From the IMG/VR virus record IMGVR_UViG_3300045988_054873: 37,747 bases of DNA, one strand, 5' to 3'. The notes under the pieces were generated by a model that was not told the origin of the DNA, did not search any database, and saw only the letters and a program-made list of their open reading frames with translations. The translations under genes and the position numbers were made by a program. Within the stretch, counting starts at the first letter, position 1. Each line of letters begins with the position of its first letter. Shown here one piece after another: positions 6,445-30,897 of this stretch. The DNA comes from a virus.

Positions 6445-9400
6445 CTATCGTTTTCCTGTGATATACTTCCTGACTTTTGCGTCATTATTGTTCTTTTCCT
6501 GGACGTATCTGGCAGTGCCGTAACCGACCTCACGACCATCCATATCCACTCTGGTTTCCAGATGGATCGTCCGCTCTTTCACCTCGTCCAGTTTTTCCCG
6601 AATGTTCTGTAATTCTGCTACGATACTGCTTCCGTCATCCTGATATGCCATATTCAGGCTTCCGTATCCTGCAAAGCTGTACTGCATCCGTGTACCACCA
6701 AAATCAGCAGCCAAAACAGGCGTTGCGGCATTTGCCAGCTTCTTGCTTGCTTTTTCCACATAAGGCAGCATTTTCAGGAGTCCGTTTCCAAGTCCTTCCG
6801 ATCCCCATGCACCTATCTTTTCCAGTACCTTAGACGGTGATCCGATTTTCAAGGCACTGCTGATGGTTGTTGCTACCCGGTTCGCAATTCCTGCCGCTGT
6901 CGCATACACAGAGCCACTTCCTGCCACAAGACCGTTTCGGAGTCCTGCCATAGCAAACAATCCCATTGAATACAGTCTGGAACTCAATCCGCTGAACGTT
7001 GACACAATCCCGTTCACACCTGTAACACAGACTGCTTTTGACAACGTCATTCCTGCACGAATCGCAGCCGTAAAGGTTGTCATTCCTGCACGAACTTTGT
7101 TCTGGATATTATTCATTTTAGTGCTGACGGTGCTCTCAATCTTACTGAACGTAGATTCGAATGAGGTTGCCGTATTTGCAAGACCGCTGGCTGCTGACGT
7201 ATTGATACTGCTCATCGCAGAATTCACATTATTCGCCATCGCCTGATAATCTCCGCTGGCCGATGCATTTGCCGTGCTTGCACTGCTGACCACATTGGAC
7301 GCCAGATCGTTCATATTTGCCGCACCTGTGCTGCTGATTCCTGACAGACTTCCGGTTACTCCAGCAAGCATGGAATCCGCAGCAGATGTTGCACCGGTAC
7401 TCATTCCATCAAATGCAGCCTGGACGCTTTCCGCCATCTGTGTCGCATTCAGAGTTGCCGTTTCGGTTGTGGCGGATGTATTTGCCTGGACACTCTCCGC
7501 CATTTCCTGAGTCTTCTCTTTTACCTTTTCCGATCCCTCGTCAGTCTTTCCGGTGATCTTATCCCACAGACCACCGAACAGATCTGCAATCCCATCAAAT
7601 ACAGAACTCAACACTTCCGGAATCGCATTCACGATTCCAAGAGCCAGATTTTTAATGATGTCCCAGCCTTTTTGCACAATATCCGGTAACATGGACGCAA
7701 TACCGGCAATGAACGATAACATCAGCTGGAACGCCGCAGTTATAATGGCCGGCAGATTATTAATGATTCCATTGGCAATCGATGCCAGCAGGTCCATTCC
7801 TGCTGTGATCATCTGCGGAAGGAACGTAACAATCGTTGTGATCAGATGATTCAGCACTGTCAGGATCGTTGCTCCGATGTCCTGACTCTGAATTCCTTCC
7901 ACAAATGCCTGAAGCACCTGAATTCCAAGAAGGATAATCTGAGGAATCATGGTAATAATTCCCATCACAAACGTTGCAATCGCATTTACTGCCGCCGGTA
8001 AGATCGTTGGCAAATTCGAAATCAGCCCCTGAACCAGCGCCGCAATAATCTGAAGCCCTGCCGACATAATCGCCGGAAGATTTGCAGTGATTGCATTTAA
8101 CAGATTTACCAAAAGCTCTGTTCCGGCACTTATAAGGGTTGGAATGCTGCTCACGATTCCCTGCGTCAGGTTCTGGATGATCTGAGGACCATTTTGCGTT
8201 GCCATTTTCAGCATTTCATTGATCTGTGTTCCGAACTGAGTCTGGAGTACACCCATTCCGGCCAACGCCACACCTACAATCGCTGCCGGCCCCACCGTCT
8301 TCATGGCAAGGCCAAACACCGTATTCAGTGCAGAGCCTAATTTTCCCAGACCGCTGACTCCGATTTTGGCAGAATTTCCTGCTGCAGTTCCAATTGCCTT
8401 CAGGTTTCCGCTGATCTTGCTTGCATATCTCTGCAATCCTGCCAGTGGAGACTCTGATCCGAAATCAAACATGCCTTTCATTTTTCCCTGCATTCCACTT
8501 GCAGCAGAAACCAGTTTCCCCTGAACCGCCTTCATCCGTGTTGTTGCTTTATCCCCGAACCCTCCAATCTTTTCAAATGCTTTCCCGAAAGGTCCCGGCA
8601 AAGAAGTTGCGATCTGACCGGCATTGCTCAACATTGTCTTGAAATTCCCGGCAAGTTGTTTCGGTGCTGCCGTCACTTTCCCTGTCAGAGAAGACAGACT
8701 GGCCTTCATTCCTGACACCATTCTCTGCACCGGGTTCCCAGAAGATACCCCAATATCCTTATACGCTTTCTTCATTGCGTCTGACATCGACATTCCGGAA
8801 CTCTTGTACACATTTGCAGCTTCCATCACATCTTTTTTGAGAGCGTTTTTTGTCTTACCGCTCTTCTTTGCGATCTTATCAAGTCTCCGCTCAAAGAAAT
8901 CCGTTTCATTTGACACCTTACCGATTCCAGTTTTTAATTTTTCAGCTCCCGCGGTGGCTGCGTCCAATGTTCCCGGCAATAAGTCCAATAACGGCATGAC
9001 TCCTGACATCACGACCGCTCCTGCAAGTGTTGCTCCTAGCTGTGGTAGCAAAGCACCAACATTCGACAGATTCTTAATCCCGTCCGCCACATTATTCAGC
9101 ACACTCTCCGCCGTGTCTCCGAACTTCTTGATGGACTCCCTCATGGTCGGGAACCCATTCTTTTTCAGCATCTCGTCCACTGCGTTGATAATACTTAAGG
9201 TTCCACGGGTAACAGCCGCACGCATATTATCGAAGGTGCCGCTCCAGCTTGCACCGGCTTCTTTCGCTGCTCCGGAGATTTTCTGGACTCCATTGGTTCC
9301 TTCCATCATTGCAGTTTCCACTGTAGACAGGAATTCATCTGCCCGGATCTTGCCTTTTGACAGATCATCCTGCACCGATGCAGAGTCTCGTCCAACAGCC

Positions 9401-12899: not shown

Positions 12900-14108
12900 T
12901 TAATCTCCAGCATTGACTGTAACAGCCACATCACCGGACTTCACGGCTTTGTAGTTCTGATCACATTCCACTACAGTAATGTGGTGTGTTGCCGTGGAGC
13001 TAATCTCGGATTCTCCATCCCATTTGCTCCAGTTTTTCACATTCATTCCGTAAGTCACGGAAGTAGCAGATGCCGCATCCTTATACTTCCAACAGTTTCT
13101 CGGAGACTGCAGCTGTTCTGATACAGACAGCTTTGTCTTTCCCGTCTCGCTTCCTGCTTCGGATGTTACGGTCAGGGTTCCAAGTGTCTGTGTATCAGCT
13201 CCGCCAACTGCGATATAAGCAATTGCATCCTGATACTCGCAGAACAGTCTCAGGCCCATGATTGCAAACATATCAGAGATAGCTCTCTCATAAGTTCCCT
13301 GCGCATGGAATCCGATGAAGCCTGTTTCAGTATCAGTTGTATACTGAAGTCCTGCTTTCACAAACTCAGAGTCGCCTGGATCTACGTAGTATGCAACCAG
13401 GTTGTTCAGCGGAGTCGCTACAACCACATTCTCCGGAATCTCAGAAGAAACAAACACGACATCTGCTCCCATGAAATCCGTCACATACTTAAATCCAAAA
13501 GCGGTCTGAAGAGTAATGTCAGCAGCACCGATGTATTTATACACGTCCAGTGTGTTCACCCAGAGCGCCACACCAGTTGCAGTTCTCTTCATTTTCTGGA
13601 ACTTGTCCACAACTTTTCCGATCGCCATAGCAACAGCCATCTGCCAGGTGGATTCGTGCCCCACAAGAGAGCCTGCTTTCAGCTGCGTGTAGAATTTTCC
13701 AGTTACCACATTGATCAGATCAGACTTGAATTCATCATCCGTGGACTGAACTGCAGCATCATAGCCTTTTTCTGCAATCGCTTCCAGAGATACTCCCTTT
13801 CTGTACTTTTCGATGCGGATTGTATCGAACGGCACTTCTTCCACCTGGTACTGAGACAGCGGAATTTCATCTCCTTCCGCTACCGCACCGCTCTGCAGTG
13901 TTCCGGTAACCTTTTTGGTCTTTAAAGTAGAACCATTCTCCTTTTTGATCATCCGGGTAATACCCATAACATCCAGCAACGCCTGTAAGTTTTTGCTAAA
14001 AGATGTTACAAAATCAATTTCTCTCGCTCTTGTCTGAACCTGTGCTGTTCCGGTCATGTTGTCCGGAGCTGCAAAAATCTGTAAACCGAATTTTCTATTC
14101 TTATTCAT
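12900..14108 (-). CDS. Major capsid protein (HK97 fold) with a C-terminal Ig-like extension
   Basis: 402 aa following the scaffold gene. N-terminus MNKNRKFGLQIFA. The C-terminal ~90 aa (TLGTLTVTSEAGSETGKTKLSV...) look like an Ig-like decoration domain. Confidence 0.85.
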   Translation of the reverse strand: MNKNRKFGLQIFAAPDNMTGTAQVQTRAREIDFVTSFSKNLQALLDVMGITRMIKKENGSTLKTKKVTGTLQSGAVAEGDEIPLSQYQVEEVPFDTIRIEKYRKGVSLEAIAEKGYDAAVQSTDDEFKSDLINVVTGKFYTQLKAGSLVGHESTWQMAVAMAIGKVVDKFQKMKRTATGVALWVNTLDVYKYIGAADITLQTAFGFKYVTDFMGADVVFVSSEIPENVVVATPLNNLVAYYVDPGDSEFVKAGLQYTTDTETGFIGFHAQGTYERAISDMFAIMGLRLFCEYQDAIAYIAVGGADTQTLGTLTVTSEAGSETGKTKLSVSEQLQSPRNCWKYKDAASATSVTYGMNVKNWSKWDGESEISSTATHHITVVECDQNYKAVKSGDVAVTVNAGD

Positions 14109-14126: not shown

Positions 14127-14777
14127 CTATTGAAATAATTCCAGATTTTCAGCAATCAGTTTCTGTCTCTCTGACGGATTCTTAATTGCCAGAATCTGTT
14201 CTTTTGTCATAGTTCCCTTGCCACCTGAACCTGCTCTTGGAGTTTTTCCCTTTAAAGTCTGCTTTACTTCGGCCAGAACTGCCTCTTTAAACAGCTTCGC
14301 AAAAGACTCTACCGCTTTCTTTGTTCCATCAGCATCGTCTGTGATCAGATGTCCAAGCAATTCATCCGGAAGGTTAATCTCTTCATCCTGAAGCATCTTT
14401 CTTGCAGTCTTTGCCATATCAGAACGATTTGACTGCTTCTGAAGATCTGCGAGCTGCGTTTTCAGCTTGTTCATTTCATATTCCGTCTTCTCTTCCTTGG
14501 TCATCTTCGCCAGTTTCTCCGCTTCCGACAGTTTGTCATCTGTCAGTGCCTGCCATTTCTCCTGTGCATTGGTCACTGCAGTCTTGACTGCTTTCTGGAC
14601 TCTGCGGTCAAACTCTGCCTGATTCCCTTCCCCTTTCAGGAAGTCGTCAAATGACATCGAACCATTTCCATTGTTTCCTTCGCCATTTCCATCCCCTGTT
14701 CCGGTACCGTCACCGTTTCCGTCTCCGGATCCGCCGTCGTCTCCATCACCTTCCGCAAACAGCTGCAAATTTGTCAT
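14127..14777 (-). CDS. Scaffolding protein
   Basis: ATG at 14777 (SD GGAGA). MTNLQLFAEGDGDDGGSGDGNG... is followed by a Lys/Glu-rich coiled coil. Lies immediately upstream of the capsid gene. Confidence 0.75.
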   Translation of the reverse strand: MTNLQLFAEGDGDDGGSGDGNGDGTGTGDGNGEGNNGNGSMSFDDFLKGEGNQAEFDRRVQKAVKTAVTNAQEKWQALTDDKLSEAEKLAKMTKEEKTEYEMNKLKTQLADLQKQSNRSDMAKTARKMLQDEEINLPDELLGHLITDDADGTKKAVESFAKLFKEAVLAEVKQTLKGKTPRAGSGGKGTMTKEQILAIKNPSERQKLIAENLELFQ

Positions 14778-14905
14778 TGGAATTCTCCAACCACCATAAA
14801 AGTTGTTCATGTGTTTCATACATCTATCCTTTCTGGCCCACCCCATTCACTGAAGCCCAGGGCATTCCGTCGAATCATAGTTTTACGTCATTTCGGACAC
14901 ACCCG

Positions 14906-15193
14906 TTACACAATCCGGACACACTCCGGAAATTCATAGGACACCATACAGATGCCAATGAAAAAGGAATCCACCAGAAGACAACCTTCCTCTGACAGAT
15001 TCCTGTATTTTATATCAACCCATCCGGGCGACATTTCGTATTCAATTTTGTCCGCCGACAAGTCTTCCAACGTCTGGATCAGCGTCTGCGTCAGAACCGT
15101 AACCGCAGCACATACCACGTCGGATCCTTCCGGCGCATAATTTGCATGGCCGGATATCGTAATTCCATCCAGCCTCACGCTTACCTCAATCAA
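14906..15193 (-). CDS. prp: Prp-family cysteine protease (ribosomal-processing protease L27-type, DUF464)
   Basis: TTG start (SD GGAGTGG). 95 aa. ...ISGHANYAPEGSDVVCAAVTVLTQT... carries the conserved GHA...D(I/V)VCAA His/Cys dyad. Confidence 0.75.
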   Translation of the reverse strand: MIEVSVRLDGITISGHANYAPEGSDVVCAAVTVLTQTLIQTLEDLSADKIEYEMSPGWVDIKYRNLSEEGCLLVDSFFIGICMVSYEFPECVRIV

Positions 15194-15247: not shown

Positions 15248-15457
15248 TCACCGCCTTTCTATCGACATCCGATTCCCGTCAAAATGTATCGCATCCCCGA
15301 TTCTTGCCATTTCATCCCCAATCCTCACTCCCTTCAGTACAGATTTCCCATCATCGAACGTATACAGAAACTTCACGCCTTTGTAGCTGATCCGGTTCGC
15401 CAGCCACTTCGGAGCAATCCGGTCTGCCACATCAGTCACGATATATGTCGCCTTCAT
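15248..15457 (-). CDS. Hypothetical protein (69 aa)
   Basis: The ATG at 15457 overlaps the stop of the upstream micropeptide (ATGA). MKATYIVTDVADRIAPKWLANRISYKGVKFLY... Confidence 0.5.
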   Translation of the reverse strand: MKATYIVTDVADRIAPKWLANRISYKGVKFLYTFDDGKSVLKGVRIGDEMARIGDAIHFDGNRMSIERR

Positions 15458-15525
15458 CGTCCTGTCCGTGCCAGGATAATGATGGCAATACAAATGATTA
15501 AAATATTAATGGTTGATGTTGCCAT
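15454..15525 (-). CDS. 23-aa hydrophobic micropeptide (candidate)
   Basis: SD CAGGAGGG plus 8 nt, then ATG at 15525. MATSTINILIICIAIIILARTGR. Its stop is coupled to the next ORF. Confidence 0.3.
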   Translation of the reverse strand: MATSTINILIICIAIIILARTGR

Positions 15526-15553
15526 GATTTCATCCCTCCTGTCTGAAAATGCG

Positions 15554-15589
15554 CATAAAAATACCACCGGTCTTTTCTGATCAGTGGTA
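15554..15589 (-). terminator. Intrinsic terminator after the moron cassette
   Basis: Minus-strand UACCACUG-(12-nt loop)-CGGUGGUA followed by UUUUUAUG. Lies just downstream of the stop at 15602. Confidence 0.55.
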
Positions 15590-15601
15590 CAGTTTCTATC
15601 G

Positions 15602-15934
15602 TTAAATAAATGGTATCATATCTTTTACGTCTTTTAATGTTTTCTTCGCTTTCTCAATCAATGAATTTTCAAATAAATACTCTATCCCTTTCGGAGTGAT
15701 AATAGCCTCCTGCAAATCGCCAAAAAGCACTCCGTCCTTCGTAGGATTAATCACAACTCCTTTTACATATTCCTCATTGATCAAACTTAAAAGGATATAT
15801 GACCAGTAATTCTCCGGAATATTATAAGTCGACGCAACTAAATGCGCAGGTTCTGGCTTTTCGCCTGCTTTTAAACAATCGTAAAGGTACTTCAGGACTC
15901 GATATACTATTACAAAATAATCATTTTGAGCCAT
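15602..15934 (-). CDS. YjcQ-like winged-helix protein
   Basis: 110 aa. MAQNDYFVIVYRVLKYLYDCLKAG...LINEEYVKGV...ITPKGIEYLFENS resembles the YjcQ family of Bacillus prophage regions. Confidence 0.5.
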   Translation of the reverse strand: MAQNDYFVIVYRVLKYLYDCLKAGEKPEPAHLVASTYNIPENYWSYILLSLINEEYVKGVVINPTKDGVLFGDLQEAIITPKGIEYLFENSLIEKAKKTLKDVKDMIPFI

Positions 15935-15963
15935 TTCACCATTTTCCTTCCTTTGCGTAGAAA

Positions 15964-16146
15964 CTACTCTACAAAATCCGGCAATTCTTTTTTTGATTTT
16001 AATGCCCTTTTTATATCTTTTACATAATCCCCATATGAATCTTCTCCATACTCCAATTCTATGTAACTATCAGGAGTACGATCGAATAATTCAAAATATT
16101 TATCATATAATTCTTTTAATTCTTGCGTCATTTTCCCGTACCACAT
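15964..16146 (-). CDS. Small acidic protein (60 aa), candidate immunity protein for the MuF C-terminal domain
   Basis: Its start overlaps the MuF stop (TAATG). MWYGKMTQELKELYDKYFELFDRTPDSYIELEYGEDSYGDY... Confidence 0.5.
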   Translation of the reverse strand: MWYGKMTQELKELYDKYFELFDRTPDSYIELEYGEDSYGDYVKDIKRALKSKKELPDFVE

Positions 16147-17780
16147 TATTTCATCAACCTCCTGATTCTCTGCTCAATTTCTTGGCTCATTTCTGGGAAT
16201 ATTTTCTTTGCCATTTCCAATGCTTTACCATCCGTATAAAACATACGTCCATACTGAGCCCAGCTTTCTTTTTCCAAGCGTCCAGACTTTTTCCAATAGT
16301 CGGTCTTGTGCGAATATCCCATTAATATATCTCCATTCGACATACCGTTCAAAATATCGGAAATCCCTCGGTACTCTTCTTTGAATTTTATTCCATATTT
16401 GCTAACCTCAAACGCTTCTGGATATTTTAAGTATAACATTTCTTCTATGCTTTTTCCATATCCTTTTGCTTGATTCCGTAGACGTCTATAATCTTTCTGA
16501 ACGGAGTTCTCTAACACCCCATTTTCCACCAAAGCATATGTATCATCAATTTCATGAAACAGCTCATGCGCTATCGTATCCGATCTTGCATCTTTTGATA
16601 AATATACTTTCTTCTCTTTTGCCGAATAATATGACTTTCTGCCACTTGATCTTGCAATCTCAGTTCTACTCAACGATTGTTTTAACAATGTCTTCACATC
16701 TTCATTCGATACTGTCTTCAGACTTTCTTTAAAGTTCTTCTTCTGTTTTGAAACGCCTGTAATTCTGTTCACTAACCGTTGTCCAATCTCTGATTCATAA
16801 GTCTCTTCTTCATGTAATTGTTTCCAATCTTCAAAATTTAATCCATGTTCTTTATAGCTGTTTATCCACTCTTCATAAGCCTCATCGTCCATATATGCTG
16901 CAACACTACAATGACATCCGGGATGCATTGGCGGAGCATTCTCTCCAGGCATCATATCATCTACCATGAAATGCTTTCCATCAAGTGCCTTGCATACCGC
17001 ACACGCATCACTGTTGCTACAGGCAATATACTCATACTCATCAAATCCATTTCTGACAAAAGACTGCTTCTGAGCCTCTGTCTGCACTCTTGCAAGCTCT
17101 GTCGTCATGAGCCTCTGCGCATTATAAGCACTGACACCGAATCTCTTCTCCAGATGCTTTGCAAGTTTCTTCGGATTCTGTCCTCTGATCAGTCCTGATG
17201 CAAGTAATCCTTCCAGCTCTGCCTTGAGCATGCCCTGATACATCCAAATACGATCCGAATATGTCGCATTCTTAAACGATGCATTCACAATTGCATGAGC
17301 GTATTTTTCATTCTTAAGAACCGACTTGCCAAGGATACCGGCTTGTCTCTGGAACTCTTTCAGCATTCTGTCGGTCAGCTTCTTGTCGAAATATTTCTGC
17401 ATCTCATCAAACCCAGACACCATCTCAAGACCGATATTTGCCTTCAGGAGTTCCAACCGGTTCACCTTCATGGTCAGATTATAGATCTGCATCTCTTCGT
17501 TTGCCTGATCAGAAAGATCTTTTGTTTCAACATACTTCTTTGCTTTTCGTTCGTATGCTGCGATATCCAGCTTGCTTACTCTTTTTTTTGCCTCAGCCAT
17601 TGTGATGCCTTCTTTAGCAGCGTACTTAGTATAGAATCCGTTGATTTCTTTGTTGATCTCATCCATCATATCGGCATAGATCTCTTCAATATTTTTCTTG
17701 TACTGCACCTCCGAGATCTGGTTTTTCATGGCGTTTTCAGCCTCTCGTTTCTTCCAATACTCACTACTCTTCATTGCCAT
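16146..17780 (-). CDS. Head morphogenesis protein (SPP1 gp7 / Mu F family) fused to a ~235-aa C-terminal HExxH domain
   Basis: 544 aa. The MuF core is ...TTELARVQTEA...CSNSDACAVCKALDGK...PPMHPGCHCSVAAY. The C-terminal extension contains AHELFHEID (HExxH at 16551..16568). Confidence 0.8.
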   Translation of the reverse strand: MAMKSSEYWKKREAENAMKNQISEVQYKKNIEEIYADMMDEINKEINGFYTKYAAKEGITMAEAKKRVSKLDIAAYERKAKKYVETKDLSDQANEEMQIYNLTMKVNRLELLKANIGLEMVSGFDEMQKYFDKKLTDRMLKEFQRQAGILGKSVLKNEKYAHAIVNASFKNATYSDRIWMYQGMLKAELEGLLASGLIRGQNPKKLAKHLEKRFGVSAYNAQRLMTTELARVQTEAQKQSFVRNGFDEYEYIACSNSDACAVCKALDGKHFMVDDMMPGENAPPMHPGCHCSVAAYMDDEAYEEWINSYKEHGLNFEDWKQLHEEETYESEIGQRLVNRITGVSKQKKNFKESLKTVSNEDVKTLLKQSLSRTEIARSSGRKSYYSAKEKKVYLSKDARSDTIAHELFHEIDDTYALVENGVLENSVQKDYRRLRNQAKGYGKSIEEMLYLKYPEAFEVSKYGIKFKEEYRGISDILNGMSNGDILMGYSHKTDYWKKSGRLEKESWAQYGRMFYTDGKALEMAKKIFPEMSQEIEQRIRRLMK

Positions 17781-19185
17781 TTACGCCTTCTCCAAGTATT
17801 TTATTGAAAACATCGACCGGTTCCTCCCCATTTCTTTCCGCATATTCTTTTATGATGGTTATCATTTCCAATATAGAGTTTTCATTTCTTCCAAGCACCA
17901 TGTACTCTGCTTTTTGATTTTCTTCCTGTTGTATTCGATCAATTTCTCCCTGCACATTGTCCACTACAGACAGTACACCAAGCTGTGTCTCTTGTGATAC
18001 GATTCCATCCAAGTTGCCGGCGATCTGACTCTCTTCCAGTACATTCGATGGAATATTCGGTGTGAAATGCGGATGAATCTTCACCCAGGCATCTTTTTTC
18101 ATTCCAGAGACCGGATTTGAAAAGATTAGCCGGTATCTCCGGTTCATTCCGGAAGTGAATTTCCGTTCTTTCGTCTTTTCCAAGTTACTCATGGCCTGCA
18201 GCTTATACTTCATGGCAATACCGGAGCTTGTCCCAAAGTTCTCATCTGAAATATTCGCAACCATGCTAATCTGGAAGATAAGCTTTTCTAATCGATCAAT
18301 CAGATGTTCCTGCGTTGTGTCTCCGTCCGGCTTCTGAAGGAAATCCACAATCATCTGCTCCGCATCTCCGTCAAAATTGATGATTCGGTCATCTCTCACA
18401 TACTTCAATTCATCTTCTTCTAGCAGAGGGCCTAAGATCGTCAGGTAGGCATCCGCAAAATAATCCACATCATTTGCCTTTTCGCTGATAGCCTTGTTAT
18501 AGGCATTGATCATGGTCAGCACCGGCTCAAAGATTCCCATTCGCTCCCTGTTCTCAACATACTCCGTGGCAGGCACTCCGTCAAAGCCATGCAGCTTCTC
18601 ATCTTCTTTCCAGACAAGCTTGCCTTTGATTGTGAACCAGCGTACTTTTTCTTCGTCAGACAGGCTACCGTGCAGGACCTGATCCGCATCAACGTACAAT
18701 CTCACAAAATAGCGTTCTCTTTGTAAGACGGAATCATCGTAGATCATGAAAGCATCCATCGGACTCAGGTAAGTAATGCAGATGTTGCTTTCCTCGTCCA
18801 CGTAATACATTTCATAGCCTTTCCCAAAGATACTGCAGATCTTGGACAACTCCGCATTGTTGTCATCCTGATCATTGTACTGATCCAACAATTCTACATA
18901 GTTCTTGACGGCTTCATCGCCATCATCTACCTGCAGTTTGATCGGATGCCCAATAAAAAAGCCGTTCATCGTATCCACGATATACTTGGCAAAATTTACT
19001 GCGATCCGGTTGTCCGGTTTCCATTTTGGCTTTTTAGCTTCTCTGAAGATCGGATACTCCGTTTCGTAGGCATCTTGTAACTGCCTGTACCGGAAGGAAC
19101 ATTCAGCAGCATGCCTGGCAATAAATTCATTCAGTTTGTTGTCCGTCAGTTCTTCCTCTGACGGCAGTCTATATAAGTTCTGCAT
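17764..19185 (-). CDS. Portal protein (SPP1 gp6-like)
   Basis: 473 aa between terL and the MuF gene. ...DNRIAVNFAKYIVDTMNGFFIGHPI... is the family motif. Confidence 0.85.
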   Translation of the reverse strand: MQNLYRLPSEEELTDNKLNEFIARHAAECSFRYRQLQDAYETEYPIFREAKKPKWKPDNRIAVNFAKYIVDTMNGFFIGHPIKLQVDDGDEAVKNYVELLDQYNDQDDNNAELSKICSIFGKGYEMYYVDEESNICITYLSPMDAFMIYDDSVLQRERYFVRLYVDADQVLHGSLSDEEKVRWFTIKGKLVWKEDEKLHGFDGVPATEYVENRERMGIFEPVLTMINAYNKAISEKANDVDYFADAYLTILGPLLEEDELKYVRDDRIINFDGDAEQMIVDFLQKPDGDTTQEHLIDRLEKLIFQISMVANISDENFGTSSGIAMKYKLQAMSNLEKTKERKFTSGMNRRYRLIFSNPVSGMKKDAWVKIHPHFTPNIPSNVLEESQIAGNLDGIVSQETQLGVLSVVDNVQGEIDRIQQEENQKAEYMVLGRNENSILEMITIIKEYAERNGEEPVDVFNKILGEGVNGNEE

Positions 19186-19186
19186 C

Positions 19187-20431
19187 TTACAGCCCTCCCT
19201 TGATATTTCTGTTCAGTCTGGCCGGAGCTTTTCTCTCCTGCTCAATGGAATAGCGTAGCATTGCCATTGCATCATCAAAAAATGGAACTGGTTCCTCCAG
19301 ATAAGTGTTTGTACGCTCATCCTTCTTCCACTTCCATTGTTGGATTTCCTTTATGGTGTTTACACAGGTCGGGTAAATGTGGATCCTGTGCTGTTTCAAA
19401 TAATCGATTTGAGCATGAACACTGTTCCGTTCCTTATTGACCGGCTTTGCCCTATATCCCGCTTTCTTCCACATCTTGATTCGATCCGGCTCTGCGGAGT
19501 CACACCACATATTAAGCCTTTTGTTAAATTTTCCCTCAGCCAACCGAATGATCTCATCCGTATCCATCTCGTACACATACAACTCACGGCACAGGAACAA
19601 CTCCCCATCCTTGAATCCAACCTCCCCAATACAGTTTGCATGGTTGAAACCAAAGTCCTGTGCATTGACCATATAGTCAAAGCGTTCCGGGCTTCGATCG
19701 AATTCTTCTACGACATAATTCTTCAGGATCAGACCGGCAACTTCGCCCCATTCACCCAAACCATAGACTCTGTATCCTTCAGGATCCACTTCCTTACGTC
19801 GAAGCATACGTCTGTGATACGCCTCATCGATGAACCGGTTGTTCTCGTAGGTAGACTGATGCGTCAGAACGTCTGGATCTTCTCGGTCAAAGAATACTTT
19901 CTTGATCCAATGATGTGCCGATACCGGATTGAACGTCAGTCTGATCTGGTAGAACTGTCCCTGTGGAAGCTCCCCTCGCAAACGGTCATCGATAATCTCA
20001 AAATCCGACTGCATGATCTCCGTGGCTTCTTCAATCCAGACATCCGTAAGCTTCCCTCGCTTAAAGGTAATAGATTTCAGCTTTTCCCGCTGTTTCTCAT
20101 CATTCATCCCTCGAAAGATGATCTTGTTATGATTGCTCTTACACTCCAGCAACATGTTAGAACTGTTGATATACCAGTACCTCTTGTACTGCTCGCCAAA
20201 CATACGAAAAATAGCACCCTGCAACTCTGCAAAAGTGCTATCTCTATTCGTGACATCTGCCTTTCGGACACACAGAAGATTGCGCCCCGGATCATTCATC
20301 AGGCGCAAAATATAGTGCTGCGCCGTGTCCATGCTCTTCCCAGATCCGGCGCTGCCACGCATCACGATGTATCGTTTCTTACTGCGATCAACTTCTTTAA
20401 AGCAGGCATTTGCCTGTAAATTTATATTCAT
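19187..20431 (-). CDS. terL: Terminase large subunit (PBSX/XtmB-type)
   Basis: 414 aa. Walker A is RGSAGSGKS. DVWIEEATE is Walker B-like. The C-terminal region is nuclease-like. Confidence 0.9.
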   Translation of the reverse strand: MNINLQANACFKEVDRSKKRYIVMRGSAGSGKSMDTAQHYILRLMNDPGRNLLCVRKADVTNRDSTFAELQGAIFRMFGEQYKRYWYINSSNMLLECKSNHNKIIFRGMNDEKQREKLKSITFKRGKLTDVWIEEATEIMQSDFEIIDDRLRGELPQGQFYQIRLTFNPVSAHHWIKKVFFDREDPDVLTHQSTYENNRFIDEAYHRRMLRRKEVDPEGYRVYGLGEWGEVAGLILKNYVVEEFDRSPERFDYMVNAQDFGFNHANCIGEVGFKDGELFLCRELYVYEMDTDEIIRLAEGKFNKRLNMWCDSAEPDRIKMWKKAGYRAKPVNKERNSVHAQIDYLKQHRIHIYPTCVNTIKEIQQWKWKKDERTNTYLEEPVPFFDDAMAMLRYSIEQERKAPARLNRNIKGGL

Positions 20432-20877
20432 CCAGTATCATCCTCACCGTAGTCAATCGTGATGTTGAGGTCCAGATCAGTATCCATGTCAACCTTGTCA
20501 GTATACAGTCCATACCGCTTTCCAAGCAGTTCAGCAGCCTTTAGCCTGTCTTTCTCTGATGGTGCTTTCTCTATCGCCCTCGCTGTGCTGCATCCGTCGC
20601 CTATTCCTTCCACAACGATTTCTTCCGATGTGGATTCTCCACGCATGACGCTTGTCAGGTACTCGATTACTTCCTGGGCATCGGCCGTCTTTTCGTTGTG
20701 GATTTCTTCCATCCGGTCATCTATATATTTTTGAACCTCAGCATTTCTGAGCAATCTCCCTCCATTTGTTGCCGCCACAACATCATTTTTTATATTTTTA
20801 TAAACTGCCTTGTAAGCCCGGGTGGCGTTACAATCAATCAGGTACTCATCACAAAATCTTTTCTGTTTTTCAGTCAC
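20428..20877 (-). CDS. terS: Terminase small subunit (Terminase_2-type)
   Basis: GTG start (SD GGGAGGTG). MTEKQKRFCDEYLIDCNATRAYKAVY... is the canonical terS N-terminus. Confidence 0.85.
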   Translation of the reverse strand: MTEKQKRFCDEYLIDCNATRAYKAVYKNIKNDVVAATNGGRLLRNAEVQKYIDDRMEEIHNEKTADAQEVIEYLTSVMRGESTSEEIVVEGIGDGCSTARAIEKAPSEKDRLKAAELLGKRYGLYTDKVDMDTDLDLNITIDYGEDDTG

Positions 20878-21710: not shown

Positions 21711-22100
21711 CTACCTCCTTGATTCCAGGTTCTCTTCGTCAGTTACCTCGCGGTATCGTTTTGGTAATGGCATCCAGGCATTGACGAATATGCCATACTT
21801 TGAATAGGGTTCGTCATCATCTCCCGGATAGAAGCTGCCACCCTCATCATCTTCTTCATATCTTGCGATATCTACCATTGTTGCATTTTCAAACGATACA
21901 AGGATATAACTTTCATCCTTCGGTGTTTGCTCAGTTATCGGAATCCATTTGCTAGGGACATTTGTGTCCTTAGCGTCAACAGATTCTACTTCTTCCAAGA
22001 TGCAAGATATATCATCGTCCAGTGTTCCGTCTTCTCTTGTATGCTTGTCTATTGCTTTTATTACATCCATTTCAAGCAAACATCTATCTTTATTTCTCAC
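21711..22100 (-). CDS. DUF551-like protein
   Basis: The C-terminus ...KWIPITEQTPKDESYILV...FVNAWMPLPKRY matches the DUF551 pattern. The GTG at 22100 overlaps the upstream stop (GTGA). An alternative ATG lies at 22121. Confidence 0.55.
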   Translation of the reverse strand: MRNKDRCLLEMDVIKAIDKHTREDGTLDDDISCILEEVESVDAKDTNVPSKWIPITEQTPKDESYILVSFENATMVDIARYEEDDEGGSFYPGDDDEPYSKYGIFVNAWMPLPKRYREVTDEENLESRR

Positions 22101-22312
22101 TTTTGCTCTACCTCCTTCCATCGTTTTTCAAAATCCTCTCTTGGTATCATGAAAGTTATATTTTTTCTTGATAGCTTAACATGCATTCCACCTTTTTCAG
22201 TTACATCCCATTTCTGCTGTGGAAAGCAATGTATCATCACTTCTGCATCACCAGAAAATGTTGCTACCCTGTACATTATGTACGTTTTAGTCCTTGCTTT
22301 CATTTGCTCCAC
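22097..22312 (-). CDS. Hypothetical protein (71 aa)
   Basis: ORF in the operon with coupled ends. Confidence 0.45.
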   Translation of the reverse strand: MEQMKARTKTYIMYRVATFSGDAEVMIHCFPQQKWDVTEKGGMHVKLSRKNITFMIPREDFEKRWKEVEQK

Positions 22313-22766
22313 CTTTTATCAACTCAAACCTGTATTTCTGTTTTGCATCTGGATATTTCTTCCGGTCAACCTCACTCACGAACATACCGTATGGTCTGCA
22401 CCAGATAGATCCGTCTGTATATTCATACACCACATAAAACTGTCCCGGTGCTTCCGTGTTTTGACCAATAGCAAGCACTTTGACTGTGTTTCCTTTGAAA
22501 TGCTTGTATACTTTTCCGATTTCAACTTTCCGATCAGTTTCTACAGGATATTTGTTCGGAAAATACTTTTCACAATCTGCCAGATCACAATTTTTATCTA
22601 ACAGTGGATTTCTTTCACTCCAATCAGATACTTCTGTTTCTTCAACGTGTACGTGGCGTGGAAATAGTCCACAATATCCATTGAAAAGAAAATTTTCCAT
22701 TGATTCTTTATCGTAATACTCATTTTCCGTCACAATATATCCGCTCACCTTAAATATCTTCGCCAT
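22287..22766 (-). CDS. DUF1653-domain protein
   Basis: The C-terminus KVYKHFKGNTVKVLAIGQNTEAPGQFYVVYEY...WCRPYGMFVSEVD...YRFELI matches the DUF1653 pattern. Confidence 0.6.
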   Translation of the reverse strand: MAKIFKVSGYIVTENEYYDKESMENFLFNGYCGLFPRHVHVEETEVSDWSERNPLLDKNCDLADCEKYFPNKYPVETDRKVEIGKVYKHFKGNTVKVLAIGQNTEAPGQFYVVYEYTDGSIWCRPYGMFVSEVDRKKYPDAKQKYRFELIKGGANESKD

Positions 22767-23139
22767 TTTTTACACCGCCTTTCACAAGTTCTTCCAGTTC
22801 GTGCCCTATCGGTTTCCACAGATGCAAGCAGTTTTCTGATATGTTCACATATTCCGATTTTTTCGGATGAATCTGATACGCTTCTTCCTCGTCCCTGAAG
22901 AAAATATCTTTCAGCGCACACATATCATCCCATGACGGAATCCTGTATCTATGTTTTGGTGATACACTTACGTGTTCATATCCATCCTCATTGTTTCCAA
23001 ACGCAACAGAACACGTTCCGCAATCCGGCAGCTTAACAAAACCGTACATAATACCACCGATTATTTTTATATCCCACACTTTACCGCTTTCCATGATCTC
23101 TTTATATGCTCTCATTTCATCCTCACTGTCATTCTTCAT
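22750..23139 (-). CDS. Hypothetical phage protein (129 aa)
   Basis: ORF with the motif ...HVSVSPKHRYRIPSWDDMCALKDIFF...YQIHPKKSEYVNISENCLHLW, which recurs in phage proteins of unknown function. Confidence 0.5.
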   Translation of the reverse strand: MKNDSEDEMRAYKEIMESGKVWDIKIIGGIMYGFVKLPDCGTCSVAFGNNEDGYEHVSVSPKHRYRIPSWDDMCALKDIFFRDEEEAYQIHPKKSEYVNISENCLHLWKPIGHELEELVKGGVKNGEDI

Positions 23140-23557
23140 AATTCATTACAATTTTAATTACTTTTACAAGTACTTTTTGAATCTGGTCATAAATGTGATG
23201 ATCGTCACTTCCAAAGTGTGAATACAGTCTTGCATCTTCTTTTCCTCTGCCATAGCAATCTTCCATAAATTCAAAGCAGTATACATCATCTTCCTGAATG
23301 ATTTCCCCGTTTTCTCTCCATTCGTAGAGAATGCGATTTTCCACCATATCATTTACAACATCTTCAGAATCTTTATCGTCATTCAAATGTCGTACACAGC
23401 AATCAATATATCCAAGCTTGTCGCAATATCTATATTCTTTTGCCGTTTCTTCCGTATATCCCTTGAATGACTCTATGATCTGCTCTTCAAAATCTTCCGG
23501 CAGATTAAAAACATCTACAATCACACCTCTCGGCAACTCTACACTATAACTTCTCAT
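23129..23557 (-). CDS. Hypothetical acidic protein (142 aa)
   Basis: ORF only. Confidence 0.5.
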   Translation of the reverse strand: MRSYSVELPRGVIVDVFNLPEDFEEQIIESFKGYTEETAKEYRYCDKLGYIDCCVRHLNDDKDSEDVVNDMVENRILYEWRENGEIIQEDDVYCFEFMEDCYGRGKEDARLYSHFGSDDHHIYDQIQKVLVKVIKIVMNYEE

Positions 23558-23852
23558 TTACTCCACCTCCCACAATCTCGATTGCTTTCCCAAATGCTTC
23601 GAATCTTCCCTGACTTCTTCCGTCACAAAAGATCTCTTCACCATCACAACATCCGCTCTCGTCGCAATTATCCGATCTGTCCTGTTCTGCTTTCTTCAAT
23701 TTTTCCAACCGCTCCACAACTTCATCCACATCAAACCCTATCGGTTGCGAATTCACTGCATCAATAATATCTTTCTGTGTATGTCCGATTCCATTTCCAA
23801 TATCCCACGCTTTTATGTATTCAACTAACGTTTCCGCATCAATCAATCTCAT
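23544..23852 (-). CDS. Hypothetical protein (102 aa), Cys-rich acidic centre
   Basis: ORF only. Confidence 0.5.
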   Translation of the reverse strand: MRLIDAETLVEYIKAWDIGNGIGHTQKDIIDAVNSQPIGFDVDEVVERLEKLKKAEQDRSDNCDESGCCDGEEIFCDGRSQGRFEAFGKAIEIVGGGVNEKL

Positions 23853-23974
23853 ATTTTTCGCACACCTCCAACTTCTTCAAGTCCTTGATAAGCCACTTCC
23901 ATACGTTTCCCATCTTTTATAAGTTCGATATAATCTCCTTTGTAAATCTTCGTCAAAAACTTCTTAAGTTTCAT
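23849..23974 (-). CDS. 41-aa ORF (candidate), coupled at both ends
   Basis: SD GAGGTGGAAG. MKLKKFLTKIYKGDYIELIKDGKRMEVAYQGLEEVGGVRKI. Overlaps the neighbouring start and stop codons. Confidence 0.3.
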   Translation of the reverse strand: MKLKKFLTKIYKGDYIELIKDGKRMEVAYQGLEEVGGVRKI

Positions 23975-24185
23975 ATACTTCCACCTCTTTTCCAACGCTT
24001 TTACAAAAGTCTAAATAATCGTCAACAGCGTTTTCAAATTCACTCATGAGAACCCAAAAATTTTTGGCTTCATAATTCACCAAATCTCTTGTGTTTTTGA
24101 TCTTTCCGTAATAGCATCTATCGTCAAAACTAAATTCTATTGTTCCTGTATAGCCCCGGTATGGAGCGAAATATCCAATAAACAT
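23964..24185 (-). CDS. HicB-like antitoxin N-terminal-domain protein (no DNA-binding domain, no adjacent HicA)
   Basis: 73 aa. ...YRGYTGTIEFSFDDRCYYGKIKNTRDLVNYEAKNFWVLMSEFENAVDDYLDFCKSVGKE matches the HicB-like pattern Y-G-x-(V/I)E-x-S-x-(E/D)D...GK...DL(I/V)xYE...AVDDYLxxC...GKE. Confidence 0.55.
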   Translation of the reverse strand: MFIGYFAPYRGYTGTIEFSFDDRCYYGKIKNTRDLVNYEAKNFWVLMSEFENAVDDYLDFCKSVGKEVEVYET

Positions 24186-24186
24186 T

Positions 24187-24861
24187 TCACGTACCTCTCA
24201 ATCCAGATTTCACATTTTCAAGTTTCTCTGCAATATCACCAGACATTTCAGATATCTCTGTAGCGTCCGTATTACGCCCTGTTTTCGATTTTCTACCGTC
24301 ATCCATACAAACTATAGCCTTTTCGTTTTTAAGACGTAATAAAGCCGAATACGATGTTTTATTCACATCCTCAATTCTGTGTTGGATATCAGATGGCATT
24401 TTGTCGAAATCTTTCTGCTTTTCTGCTAGTGCTCTGTATACTCTTCCGAACTGTGCCGAAACAACTCCCTCGTTGTAATCTTGATCCAGTGCCCATACTC
24501 GCAACTGAGATGGTGATCCAACCGCTTTCTGGATAATTGGTGGAAACTTCTCAAATTCTTCCACTGAGTAATAACCGCATCTGCTAAGAGAACTTCTTAC
24601 GATCGCCCAAGCTTCTGTTTCCGAAAGTAGTTCTGGCTGAGTAACGACTTGAATTTTCTCAATCAGTTGTCCAGGTGTAGGAGCAAATCCACTTGTACTT
24701 GTTTTCAAATACATCTTCAATGCAACGCTAACTTGTTCGTATGTGTACTCTGACATAGCATCTGCCCAAGTAGCTGCTGCCAGTTCTGTATCAATTGGCT
24801 TATAGTTTGGATAAGTCACCATGAATACCGCTATCAACTTTCTTGCATCTTTAATTGTCAT
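24187..24861 (-). CDS. Helicase loader-like protein (SPP1 G39P-type)
   Basis: ...AVFMVTYPNYKPIDTELAAATWADAMSEYTYEQVSVALKMYLKTSTSGFAPTPGQLI resembles the G39P loader family. Follows the replisome organizer. Confidence 0.55.
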   Translation of the reverse strand: MTIKDARKLIAVFMVTYPNYKPIDTELAAATWADAMSEYTYEQVSVALKMYLKTSTSGFAPTPGQLIEKIQVVTQPELLSETEAWAIVRSSLSRCGYYSVEEFEKFPPIIQKAVGSPSQLRVWALDQDYNEGVVSAQFGRVYRALAEKQKDFDKMPSDIQHRIEDVNKTSYSALLRLKNEKAIVCMDDGRKSKTGRNTDATEISEMSGDIAEKLENVKSGLRGT

Positions 24862-25699
24862 TTTCCGCATCCCTCCTTATCTGCTCCATAAGGTTGTCAA
24901 ATTGTTCTTCTCTCGAATCTTTTTTCCATGACGATTTTTTATTTGCATTTTTCAACTTATCCCAGACAATACCCTGATAACCATTCGATATACTTTCGTT
25001 AATAACGTTTGTAACAGCTTCATCACCAAACTGACTCGACTTATCCGATATTGTTTTTAAAAGTGTCCGAAGTCCCATCTCTTTGTATTTAAAATTTCTC
25101 TCTTCCTTGTAACCGATCCAGTTGTTTACTGCTTCTAAAAGGTAGTCAGATATATTTACTTCTAAAAGTAATTTATTTAATAAATCTTTATATTTATTTC
25201 TTTTATTAACAGTATCAGTATCAGTAACAGAATCAGATACAGTATCAGTAACAGTAACAGATGTATCACTACAATTTGTATTGATACAAGTTGTATCGAT
25301 ACCGTATCCAGAATGATCACCATTATAGATTTTTTTCAGATAATCTCTGAACGAATCACACTTAATATTTTCGATTTCTCTCAGTAATGGCTTTCTAAAT
25401 TTTTCTGAATTAGTCCAATTATATTTGTGCCAATTTAACAGTAAAATTTCCTTTGTTTCATCAGAAAATCTAACCACGTTATGCACAAATTCAAAACGTC
25501 TTATAAGGTTTTCAATACTGTCTTTACTGTACCCTGTTTCATTTGCAATTTGCTTAAGGCTAATTTCATAACAACCGCTTAAATTAGTGTGAGGATTGGT
25601 GAACAAGTACAGATAAAAATACTTGTCTTCCGCCGTAAAATCATCAGTAACTTTTCTGTCTGTCCAAAATGTCATTGATACGGTTCTGTATATCGCCAT
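24851..25699 (-). CDS. Replication initiator / replisome organizer (DnaD-related, DUF4373-like N-terminus)
   Basis: ATG at 25699 (SD GAGGAGG). MAIYRTVSMTFWTDRKVTDDFTAEDKYFYLYLFTNPHTNLSGCYEISLKQIANETGYS... The central T/D/S/V low-complexity linker is encoded by hexamer repeats. Confidence 0.65.
   Translation of the reverse strand: MAIYRTVSMTFWTDRKVTDDFTAEDKYFYLYLFTNPHTNLSGCYEISLKQIANETGYSKDSIENLIRRFEFVHNVVRFSDETKEILLLNWHKYNWTNSEKFRKPLLREIENIKCDSFRDYLKKIYNGDHSGYGIDTTCINTNCSDTSVTVTDTVSDSVTDTDTVNKRNKYKDLLNKLLLEVNISDYLLEAVNNWIGYKEERNFKYKEMGLRTLLKTISDKSSQFGDEAVTNVINESISNGYQGIVWDKLKNANKKSSWKKDSREEQFDNLMEQIRRDAENDN
25150..25302. other. Candidate replication origin inside the initiator gene (AT-rich block + hexamer iterons + palindromes)
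   Basis: 25150-25208 is roughly 85% A+T by eye. Nine consecutive [A/T]CAG[T/A][A/T] hexamers span 25209-25262, with the 12-mer ACAGTATCAGTA at 25209 and 25239. Palindromes are GTATTGATAC (25278-25287) and GTATCGATAC (25293-25302). Confidence 0.4.
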
Positions 25700-26003
25700 C
25701 TTGCACCTCCTCAAAATAAAATCTAATCGGTTTATCTGCTATTTTATAATATTTACTTATCATTCGCCCTTGATGATTCTTTGCAAGTAATTCAGATAAC
25801 TTTTTACGAAATTCTTCCACAGAAAGAGTTCCCTTGCTCATATTGCAATCGGGACACGCCGGGACTAAATTATTGTGTTGTTTTCCGTTTTTTCTTTGTG
25901 CTAAATAATGGTCTATATGAAAATTATTTGCATCTAAATCACAGCCACAATAAAAACATCTTCCGTTAGTTATTCCGTAAATTTTCTTTCTGTTTAAAGT
26001 CAC
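25644..26003 (-). CDS. HNH endonuclease
   Basis: GTG start (SD AAAGGAG). ...GRCFYCGCDLDANNFHIDHYLAQRKNGKQHNNLVPACPDCNMSKG is the HNH motif with two CxxC pairs. Confidence 0.8.
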   Translation of the reverse strand: MTLNRKKIYGITNGRCFYCGCDLDANNFHIDHYLAQRKNGKQHNNLVPACPDCNMSKGTLSVEEFRKKLSELLAKNHQGRMISKYYKIADKPIRFYFEEVQDGDIQNRINDILDRQKSY

Positions 26004-26032
26004 TTCCTTACACTCCTTTCAAGTTCTGGTAT

Positions 26033-26197
26033 TCACTCAAATACCCCCAGTTCTTTTATGGTGTCCACACAAACACCGAATCTATTTAAGACTTGATTTC
26101 CACCATTTGGCGGTCTGTCATAGGCACAGTCTTTGTATGGACAGATAAAGCAGTTCGGGTACTGGCAGTATGTAGGTTTGGCATTTCTTTTTTCCAT
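26033..26197 (-). CDS. 54-aa Cys-rich ORF (candidate)
   Basis: MEKRNAKPTYCQYPNCFICPYKDCAYDRPPNGGNQVLNRFGVCVDTIKELGVFE. Weak SD (GGGGA). Fills an otherwise empty 218-bp gap. Confidence 0.3.
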   Translation of the reverse strand: MEKRNAKPTYCQYPNCFICPYKDCAYDRPPNGGNQVLNRFGVCVDTIKELGVFE

Positions 26198-26221
26198 GTT
26201 TTTCCCCGCTTTCTGCTAATT

Positions 26222-26932
26222 CTAATTCGGGTACAGTGCTTTTAAAGAAAGCTTAATCACAAAATCCATTGATTCCTGTTTTGTAAATCCAGCTTTCTCA
26301 AGATCACTCCGAATTTCATACATTGCTTTTGCAAAATCTTGTGTTTCTTTTTTTGGCTCTTCTTTTTCTTTATCGCCAAATACAGTCTTATACGCTGCTC
26401 TAATTTCTTCGTCGGACATTTTATATGTTCCATCCGGATATTTTGTTTTGAAATGTACACCTCTGCCACAACGGCATTTTCTTCCTCCTAAGTCGCAATC
26501 ACTACACTTTTTTGAAAAATCACTGCAATATTTGTAAAGTTTATCTCTCATTTCCTTTACACTGATTTCATAGCTAACCCCCATCAATCTTTCAAATGCC
26601 AATTTCGCACCGATGTAAAAATCAAATTCATCATCCGGGTGACACCTTGCAATAGCCTTTGATCTAGAAACTTTATCCAACGCGATCACCTGATTTTCTT
26701 TTCTATAAATCACGATGGTTTCATTGATACTTTCAATTTCTTCTGGTTCGAGAAAACAAGACAATCCACGTACTTTATCAGTAATAAGCAAAAGTTTTCC
26801 GCCAGAACAAATACCATCAATTTTCACAGCTTTCCCAATCAGATAATCCATCTCGCCTTTTTTATTCCAGCCATCCGGTCTTTTATTAAACTTCTTTACT
26901 CTTACATAATCTCCAACTTTAAATTTGCTCAT
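26222..26932 (-). CDS. Hypothetical protein (236 aa)
   Basis: ORF. N-terminal KOW/SH3-like stretch, then central ...AIARCHPDDEFDFYIGAKLAFERL... No function assigned. Confidence 0.55.
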   Translation of the reverse strand: MSKFKVGDYVRVKKFNKRPDGWNKKGEMDYLIGKAVKIDGICSGGKLLLITDKVRGLSCFLEPEEIESINETIVIYRKENQVIALDKVSRSKAIARCHPDDEFDFYIGAKLAFERLMGVSYEISVKEMRDKLYKYCSDFSKKCSDCDLGGRKCRCGRGVHFKTKYPDGTYKMSDEEIRAAYKTVFGDKEKEEPKKETQDFAKAMYEIRSDLEKAGFTKQESMDFVIKLSLKALYPN

Positions 26933-26960
26933 AAAGCACCTCTTTCCATAAATTAATCAA

Positions 26961-27383: not shown

Positions 27384-27657
27384 CGTTTCCACCATCCTCC
27401 GGAATGTTCATAAATGGTTTATCTGTAAGTTCTACGTTTGCAACGTATATGCGATTAATACTGTTTGGCATTACGTTGAACGTAACCTCAGAATCAAACA
27501 AAACACTCTTAAATCTCAGTGCTCCGTTTCTTCCGAAACCAAGAAATGTTCCAGTAAAGCATTTTCCGATAGCTTCGAAAACCACCGTATCTCCCTCTTT
27601 AATTACCTGATTATCCGTTGCCATAGCGGATATTGTTGTTTCTTTTTTAATCTGCAT
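27376..27657 (-). CDS. Hypothetical protein (93 aa)
   Basis: ORF only. Confidence 0.5.
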   Translation of the reverse strand: MQIKKETTISAMATDNQVIKEGDTVVFEAIGKCFTGTFLGFGRNGALRFKSVLFDSEVTFNVMPNSINRIYVANVELTDKPFMNIPEDGGNDE

Positions 27658-27693
27658 TTTCTACCTCCTCAATTTCTATAATGATCCGTGGAT

Positions 27694-29048: not shown

Positions 29049-29053
29049 CTCCG

Positions 29054-30184: not shown

Positions 30185-30192
30185 ATTTCCCC

Positions 30193-30894: not shown

Positions 30895-30897
30895 TTT

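Follow-up and report, generated by a model that had tools for sequence, protein, structure and literature searches.

The 37,747-nucleotide virus record IMGVR_UViG_3300045988_054873 of IMG/VR (all of which is here called the window) carries its late genes on the minus strand in the order TerS, TerL, portal, MuF, an open reading frame (ORF) of 60 amino acids (aa), a YjcQ-like gene, a hairpin, an 81-aa ORF, Prp, scaffold and major capsid protein (Table 1). We examined the MuF head-morphogenesis protein of this module, whose C-terminal extension contains an HExxH motif, together with the 60-aa acidic ORF that follows it. A preliminary description of this DNA had read the pair as a toxin/immunity-like cargo of the phage head.

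The N-terminal part of the protein is recognized as a MuF core by PF04233 (Phage_Mu_F; residues 190-293, E = 1.9e-19) and by TIGR01641 (E = 5.2e-29). A tblastn comparison of the whole protein with 50,697 phage records gave matches in 847 records, nearly all of which ended at residues 312-342, and a single match covered 80% or more of the protein. Searched on their own, the C-terminal 245 residues had one weak match in the same collection, to a Flyfo myovirus (28% identity). The C-terminal region is thus not a conserved part of gp7 homologues, which agrees with its earlier description as cargo. The closest cultured relative, Dorea phage DO134P1 (OP172779.1), has approximately 70% aa identity to the window protein up to residue ~319 and is unrelated beyond this point; the similarity runs to '...EEWLNSYKEHGLSYEE', aligned with window residues 302-317. 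The MuF protein of the metagenomic phage L002 is also ~70% identical up to residue ~319, and nucleotide homology of the window stops at 16828 against DO134P1 and at 16822 against L002, equivalent to codon ~319. Judged by these alignments, conservation of MuF with close relatives breaks off at residue ~319. The preliminary description had ended the core at about residue 300 and allowed ~235 aa for the remainder; the long extension is present, but protein and DNA comparisons shift the boundary to ~319 and the length of the extension to 225 aa.

Searches of Pfam, NCBIfam and PDB sequences, with the C-terminal domain as a single sequence or as a profile, gave no usable match, the NCBIfam scan returning only a weak 34-residue match to a CLCA_X motif (E = 0.0038). 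Among PHROGs, phrog_4728 ('head morphogenesis') covers the C-terminal domain and indeed the whole architecture. A word-based search found 47 homologues of the domain, and a profile search of 1.84 billion representatives detected 776 relatives with E ≤ 1e-3, of which 106 reached E ≤ 1e-30. The HExxH domain was always located at the extreme C-terminus of these relatives, which are mostly proteins of 450-670 aa. Conservation was assessed in 64 long representatives with pairwise identities of 50% or less. H405, E406 and H409 of the HExxH motif are invariant in all 64, as are D475 (within YRGISD), H491 (GYGH), Y495 and W496 (YW) and E505 (ExWAQxGR), and D412 and D430 are kept in at least 90%. Our scans of IMG/VR and genome loci, which are used below, were keyed on the peptide patterns AHELFH and YRGISD, which makes the conservation of HExxH in the scanned loci partly a matter of construction; the unbiased evidence is that of the profile search and the 64 representatives, while linkage to the small ORF is free of this bias. 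In these representatives the HExxH motif is evidently under strict conservation. The preliminary description had placed the zincin-type motif AHELFHEID at 16551-16568, which was essentially right (AHELFHEID spans 16545-16571 and HELFH 16554-16568), and non-conservation of HExxH among homologues, which it had listed as counter-evidence, was not observed.

An AlphaFold2 model of the domain, derived from a 42-sequence alignment, had a predicted local distance difference test (pLDDT) score of 90.2 and contained three strands (75-78, 85-87 and 92-95) followed by a helix (101-116) bearing HELFH, an order that corresponds to zincin topology. The top Foldseek matches in PDB, though weak, were all zincins, namely the ArdC metalloprotease domain, anthrax lethal factor, PprI/IrrE and selecase, and the best matches among predicted viral structures were the C-termini of other 'minor capsid proteins' with 14-17% identity. 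The combination of HExxH with a distal invariant Glu in an ExxAxxxR-like helix and a preceding invariant Tyr is a motif-level likeness to lethal-factor-like gluzincins; the spacing from HExxH to this Glu is ~96 residues in the window domain. Lethal factor, representing the Tox-ALF type of Zhang 2012, was among the weak Foldseek matches, but with TM scores of 0.3-0.39, E-values above 0.9 and no profile match. The extension is thus probably a divergent, gluzincin-like metallopeptidase domain as predicted from motifs and model, its fold class being the more tentative part of this assignment.

The 60-aa ORF starts on the MuF stop codon (TAATG), with AGGAGG 11 nt upstream, and its product has a pI of 4.66, so that both the overlap and the acidity given in the preliminary description are borne out. 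A homologue of this ORF lies directly after the domain in 79 of 80 IMG/VR loci, the sole exception being a contig that ends 44 nt past the domain, and in 8/8 loci from GTDB species genomes (87/88 overall). In most of these loci the start of the small ORF overlaps the MuF stop codon. By this count the small gene is an obligate neighbour of the domain. The family comprises at least 151 clusters of stand-alone proteins without annotation, all of ~60 aa and acidic throughout (pI 4.05-5.3). Mean pairwise identity is 0.40 for the small protein and for the domain alike, and the divergence of one correlates with that of the other (r = 0.63, Mantel p ~5e-4). AlphaFold2 predicted three helices for the 60-aa protein (pLDDT 74), for which Foldseek found no fold match in PDB.

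Comparison of loci showed that the domain is carried by different MuF cores, with PF04233 in 32 and PF06152 in 22 of the 64 representatives and an LPD3 polyvalent-protein domain in one. Some loci combine a domain that is 45-58% identical to that of the window with an N-terminus that BLASTP fails to detect or that is only 21-28% identical, and the DNA of locus L007 matches the window only over 16763 to 15964. The clearest exchange is seen between L002 and a second metagenomic phage, L003, whose identity is 92% as far as MuF codon ~318 and 95.8% beyond a point 5 nt upstream of the small ORF. The stretch enclosed by these breakpoints is 672 bp in L003, encoding the HExxH domain, whereas L002 has 990 bp (3006-3995) encoding a HNHPGSSVPSLAD-motif domain and two paralogous small ORFs of 60 and 57 aa. 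The HNHPGSSVPSLAD motif is JAB/RadC-like, the match to Prok-JAB being sub-threshold (E = 0.035). L002 then carries an orphan 60-aa ORF with 90% identity to that of the window. An orphan is also found in L004, and one and the same 60-aa protein (P0051) is a cognate in some loci and an orphan in others. A third allele is present in DO134P1 (L001), where a very distant HNHP-motif domain is followed by a 46-aa ORF and a Tad2-like gene; the JAB-like variants of L001 and L002 are barely alignable (26% over 38 aa). The backbones of the three alleles (HExxH and two JAB-like) are 92-96% identical to each other and ~70% identical to the window MuF core protein. The window locus is itself a mosaic by the same comparisons, with a MuF gene of the L018 type (97% identity over the domain) and a small ORF of the L003 type (90% identity, as against 75% to the L018 type).

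A further allele was found in a prophage represented by 24 contigs (L110), in which a PF06152 MuF core is fused to Ntox50 (E = 5.3e-35) and followed by a 71-aa ORF. Further on lie 47 aa left over from the 3' end of the HExxH domain (E = 1.9e-12) and then an intact orphan 60-aa ORF. Ntox50 is a recognized polymorphic-toxin RNase domain and is among the domains listed for MuF toxins in Jamet 2017 (PMC5576092). Through the displaced tail and orphan beside Ntox50, the HExxH/60-aa pair joins an accepted toxin/immunity pair in one allelic series. Loci for contact-dependent growth inhibition (CDI; cdiA-CT/cdiI) and Rhs loci contain orphan toxin-tail/immunity modules downstream of a new pair. L110 is alike in having a displaced 3' toxin-domain fragment and an intact partner behind a newly acquired pair, and a conserved junction precedes the variable region in these systems also; CDI and Rhs proteins, however, use secretion systems, whereas the scaffold in the window is a phage head protein encoded among late phage genes. 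The concept of orphan toxin/immunity modules is that of Zhang et al. 2012 (PMC3482391). Across the loci compared, the domain and small ORF behave as a mobile cassette, which is the signature of polymorphic toxin/immunity loci.

Several other arrangements of the domain and its partner were encountered. The sole non-MuF context found is the 1151-aa protein P0101, with LPD3 at 674-771 and the HExxH domain at 899-1151. Proteins in which the domain follows N-termini of portal, single-strand annealing protein, or small or large terminase (P0002, P0003, P0007, P0020 and P0037) were rejected as assembly or gene-call chimeras on account of their abrupt junctions, for example a portal N-terminus joined straight to '...PGCHCSVAAYMDD'; taken at face value, they would lead to false domain architectures. 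The alternative C-termini of L002, L004 and L001 (5940-6630) share a JAB/RadC-like HNHP...S..D motif and are followed by small acidic ORFs of their own. On the [Ruminococcus] lactaris chromosome (L011-L013, 5001-6071), a prophage remnant between ornithine decarboxylase and HAD/polA genes retains 153 aa of a 5'-truncated HExxH domain, together with the 60-aa ORF in intact form and a 120-aa ORF. Index entries for it come from over 1000 blocks of the assembly collection. Remnants with a truncated domain and an intact small ORF also occur in Faecalimonas and in Clostridium sp. ASF356; L102 and L106 belong to this group of remnants too. In a PF06152-type phage (L014-L016, 3156-5920), a homing-endonuclease gene with NUMOD4 and HNH_3 domains separates the MuF core (277 aa) from the HExxH-domain ORF (241 aa), which may reflect a split gene or an intron/intein-like insertion; a search of L014 for a group I intron gave no Rfam match.

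These features can be compared with those of known systems. MuF polymorphic toxins (Jamet 2017, PMC5576092) have in common with the window a MuF N-terminus encoded beside the portal gene, a variable enzymatic C-terminus, a small ORF (<150 aa) directly downstream, a prophage setting in gut Clostridia/Firmicutes as judged by relatives of the locus, and allelism with Ntox50. In its sequence features, the locus has the structural make-up that defines this class: the N-terminus, the variable C-terminus, the small ORF, the position in the packaging module and, as judged by relatives, the Firmicutes prophage setting. The toxin/immunity-like reading of the preliminary description is accordingly supported by C-terminal variability, strict linkage of the small ORF, co-divergence and orphans, one of them beside Ntox50. 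Metallopeptidase domains are present in 20% of MuF toxins according to Jamet 2017, so the concept of such cargos is known. What is new is an unannotated domain family, its obligate 60-aa partner and an allele series with orphans, the comparison with the metallopeptidase cargos of Jamet 2017 being at class level only. An experimental precedent for a MuF toxin with downstream immunity is Apk2/IapK/Aph1 of a Streptococcus pneumoniae prophage (PMC12226406), and the EFV ADP-ribosyltransferase is a further example of a MuF polymorphic toxin (PMC5576092). Bacillus phage SPP1 gp7, the prototype short MuF protein, has a homologous core (TIGR01641, phageSPP1_gp7) and is likewise encoded after the portal gene, but is without C-terminal cargo, the window MuF being 225 residues longer. 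Metallopeptidase domains of the polyvalent-protein/ArdC type (Iyer 2017, PMC5512222) are similar in that a zincin-type HExxH domain resides on proteins travelling with invading DNA; ArdC is the top, though weak, PDB fold match (E = 0.56) and one family member is part of an LPD3 polyvalent protein. They differ in having no significant sequence or structure match to the window domain, whose family has a dedicated small partner gene.

We therefore consider it fairly probable that the MuF C-terminus carries an exchangeable effector cassette consisting of a putative zincin-like metallopeptidase domain and a co-translated 60-aa acidic partner. By analogy with SPP1 gp7, and following the proposals of Jamet 2017 (PMC5576092) and Iyer 2017 (PMC5512222), the MuF part would anchor the protein to the portal, such that virions would take up a few copies and eject them together with the DNA. 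The small acidic protein would bind and block the peptidase in the producing cell, while in a newly infected cell the peptidase would arrive without inhibitor and could cut a cytoplasmic target. Cells or prophages expressing the small protein, orphan copies included, would be protected, and the outcome may be either inhibited growth of competitors or an advantage for the infecting phage.

Several observations weigh against this interpretation. The Foldseek matches in PDB are not significant (best E = 0.56, TM below 0.4), and for the third metal ligand there are only candidates, the invariant E505 and the ≥90% conserved D412 and D430. One feature of MuF toxins is lacking, in that the domain is neither a recognized toxin domain, having no Pfam or NCBIfam model, nor shared with other toxin scaffolds: none of the 64 long representatives had it on another scaffold for polymorphic-toxin delivery, while ~75% of MuF toxin domains also occur on other toxin scaffolds, as reported in Jamet 2017 (PMC5576092). 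No separate promoter was evident for the small ORF, although the promoter scan was uninformative on independent expression since predicted sites were no more numerous than in shuffled sequences. Being a late gene, the small ORF may be silent in lysogens, and a role in classical immunity is less likely on both counts. The exchange of partners between variants, as in the window itself, argues against tight pairwise specificity, and retention of orphans may be a mechanical consequence of insertions, which displace the 5' part of the old cassette and nothing more.

With the same mode of delivery, the injected peptidase may instead serve the phage itself. It may be a host-takeover or anti-defence effector, or a modulator of the lysis-lysogeny decision, that would cut a defence or regulatory protein of the host, with the small protein acting merely as a safety catch during assembly and no killing of competitors. 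The occurrence of one family member within the 1151-aa LPD3 polyvalent protein points in this direction, polyvalent proteins having been proposed as injected counter-defence proteins (Iyer 2017, PMC5512222), as do the ArdC antirestriction metalloprotease and IrrE/PprI regulators among the weak structural neighbours, the Tad2-like anti-Thoeris gene in the same genomic slot of DO134P1, the protease-like (JAB) nature of the alternative alleles and the translational coupling of the small ORF inside a late operon. Peptidase cargos are, moreover, expected to be only moderately toxic (Jamet 2017, PMC5576092). Allelism with the toxin RNase Ntox50 and the arrays of orphan small ORFs, however, fit toxin/immunity logic, and the structural matches are non-significant. 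We regard it as unlikely, though with a real chance of being correct.

Roles in building the virion are harder to reconcile with the data. If the domain and small protein were structural or assembly parts of a MuF subfamily, such as a capsid-internal module and its chaperone, this would suit the near confinement of the domain to MuF cores, the span of phrog_4728 over the entire architecture, the position of the small ORF in the late operon without an evident promoter and the exchangeability of partners. Against this, relatives with 92-96% identical flanks lack the domain or bear unrelated ones, almost all of the 847 MuF-encoding phage records are without it, intact orphan small ORFs persist without the domain, and the invariant HExxH and Glu signature would indicate catalysis; a structural role is consequently improbable. 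It is more improbable still that the peptidase is a processing enzyme, i.e. a protease for head maturation or an autoproteolytic 'releasing' peptidase, with MuF or capsid proteins in the procapsid as substrate. Papain-like releasing peptidases are listed for the MuF system in Zhang 2012 (PMC3482391), and some of the PHROGs matching the MuF core are labelled 'head maturation protease'. This phage, however, has its own Prp-type protease, and its scaffold and major capsid proteins both have LQxFA-type N-terminal motifs; the domain is the most C-terminal one, so that no part of the protein follows that could be released, close relatives can dispense with it, and a dedicated inhibitor gene would be unexpected for a maturation protease. 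Both roles are thus made unlikely by near-identical phages that lack the domain and by the prior presence of Prp and LQxFA motifs.

Returning to the exchangeable effector cassette, a narrower version of it is a MuF-specific 'injected protease plus dedicated inhibitor', in which the peptidase would cut a host defence or regulatory protein and orphan inhibitors in prophages and remnants (e.g. species-wide in [Ruminococcus] lactaris) would protect against superinfecting relatives. In this detailed form the idea is speculative and rather doubtful, but, if true, it would add an experimentally undescribed protease/anti-protease layer to the conflicts of phages in gut Clostridia with each other and with their hosts. 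The MuF cargos studied experimentally so far are nucleotide-modifying only (Apk2 and EFV), whereas the locus defines a sizeable, predicted family of MuF-restricted protease-type cargos in phages of gut Lachnospiraceae and other Clostridia. Neither the domain nor the 60-aa family currently has a Pfam or NCBIfam model. The allele series (HExxH, JAB-like with an orphan small ORF, and Ntox50 with an orphan small ORF) provides ready-made controls, and the family is a tractable case for studying packaging and injection of MuF cargo, cleavage targets and small ORFs as inhibitors.

Base composition sets the cassette apart from its surroundings only in part. The preliminary description had judged the segment from ~15600 to ~16850 to be AT-rich by eye, and GC content is indeed 0.35 across 15554-16850 as compared with 0.43-0.50 in the adjacent packaging and head genes (0.30 for the 60-aa ORF, 0.36 for the C-terminal extension and 0.43 for the MuF core). 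This is the sole low-GC patch of the structural module, but genome-wide it ranks only at the 9th percentile. The early region (window 22000-35500) is likewise AT-rich (GC 0.32-0.38), so low GC is only partly useful as a sign of foreign origin and is notable within the structural module only.

Table 1. Position of the MuF locus and neighbouring late genes in the window
Feature	Coordinates	Strand	Basis or remark
TerS	20428-20877	minus	
TerL	19187-20431	minus	
SPP1-type portal	17764-19185	minus	
MuF protein, 544 aa	16146-17780	minus	PF04233 and TIGR01641
MuF/gp7 core, residues 1-319, with conserved junction ...AAYMDDEAYEEWINSYKEHGLNFEDW	16824-17780	minus	
Variable C-terminal extension: helical linker (~320-352) and zincin-like HExxH domain (~353-544)	16146-16823	minus	Stop codon included
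HELFH motif (H405, E406, H409)	16554-16568	minus	Translation; AHELFHEID at 16545-16571
60-aa acidic ORF, candidate inhibitor/immunity protein	15964-16146	minus	pI 4.66
YjcQ-like gene	15602-15934	minus	PF09639, phrog_3675
Intrinsic-terminator-like hairpin and U-run	about 15554-15590	minus	Folding
81-aa ORF of unknown function, between terminator and Prp	15248-15493	minus	TTG start, phrog_13199
Prp-type cysteine protease	14906-15193	minus	PF04327
DUF4355 scaffold protein	14127-14846	minus	
Major capsid protein	12900-14108	minus	

Downstream of the small ORF, the preliminary description had included a YjcQ-like gene and a private terminator in the same moron. The gene is present (PF09639, 78.7 bits against a gathering cut-off of 23.3; E = 3.7e-22), but a YjcQ-like gene follows the small ORF in just 6/88 loci and was rejected as part of the cassette; this rarity indicates an independent insertion between small ORF and terminator. 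The hairpin with its U-run (UUUUUAU) is also present, with a folding energy of -16.4 kcal/mol (z = -3.4) that was equalled in 1 of 200 shuffles, although a consensus terminator scan missed it at ~15554-15590 because of the hairpin loop. It is not private to the insert, however. In L002, L003 and L005, which are without YjcQ, the conserved hairpin region comes directly after the small ORF, with Prp next in line. For a 33-bp hairpin core (15543-15575), conservation is 88% in L002 and L003, and in these two loci the core begins 14 nt past the small ORF. From this conservation, the terminator is backbone sequence that normally closes the MuF/small-ORF unit. In DO134P1, a gene at 6700-7194 that is annotated as hypothetical is Tad2-like (Thoeris anti-defence 2, PF11195, E = 3.5e-25) and lies between the MuF cassette and the scaffold gene, i.e. 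in the slot occupied by YjcQ in the window. The slot after the MuF cassette looks like a hot spot for insertion of accessory or anti-defence genes.

No homologue of the 81-aa ORF was found among the ~100 related loci examined. Its place between terminator and Prp is taken in L018 by a 121-aa stand-alone ORF (5399-5764) with an HEIIH motif and weak BSP/SprT-like matches, which would be a second small zincin-like gene.

Outside the late module, the window contains genes for an Ant-type anti-repressor (32847-33581), RecE/RecT-like proteins (31302-32174 and 30193-30894), an HNH endonuclease (27694-28647) and a DnaD-like loader (24851-25714). There is no recognizable integrase and no tRNA within the window; relatives of the locus lie in bacterial chromosomes, one of these relatives (L017) next to an integrase. 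The LQxFA motifs are located near the N-termini of the scaffold (MTNLQLFA|EG) and of the major capsid protein (FGLQIFA|AP), and they resemble the Prp cleavage sites of Staphylococcus aureus phage 80alpha. In the scaffold, a Gly/Asp/Asn-rich low-complexity stretch lies right behind the motif.

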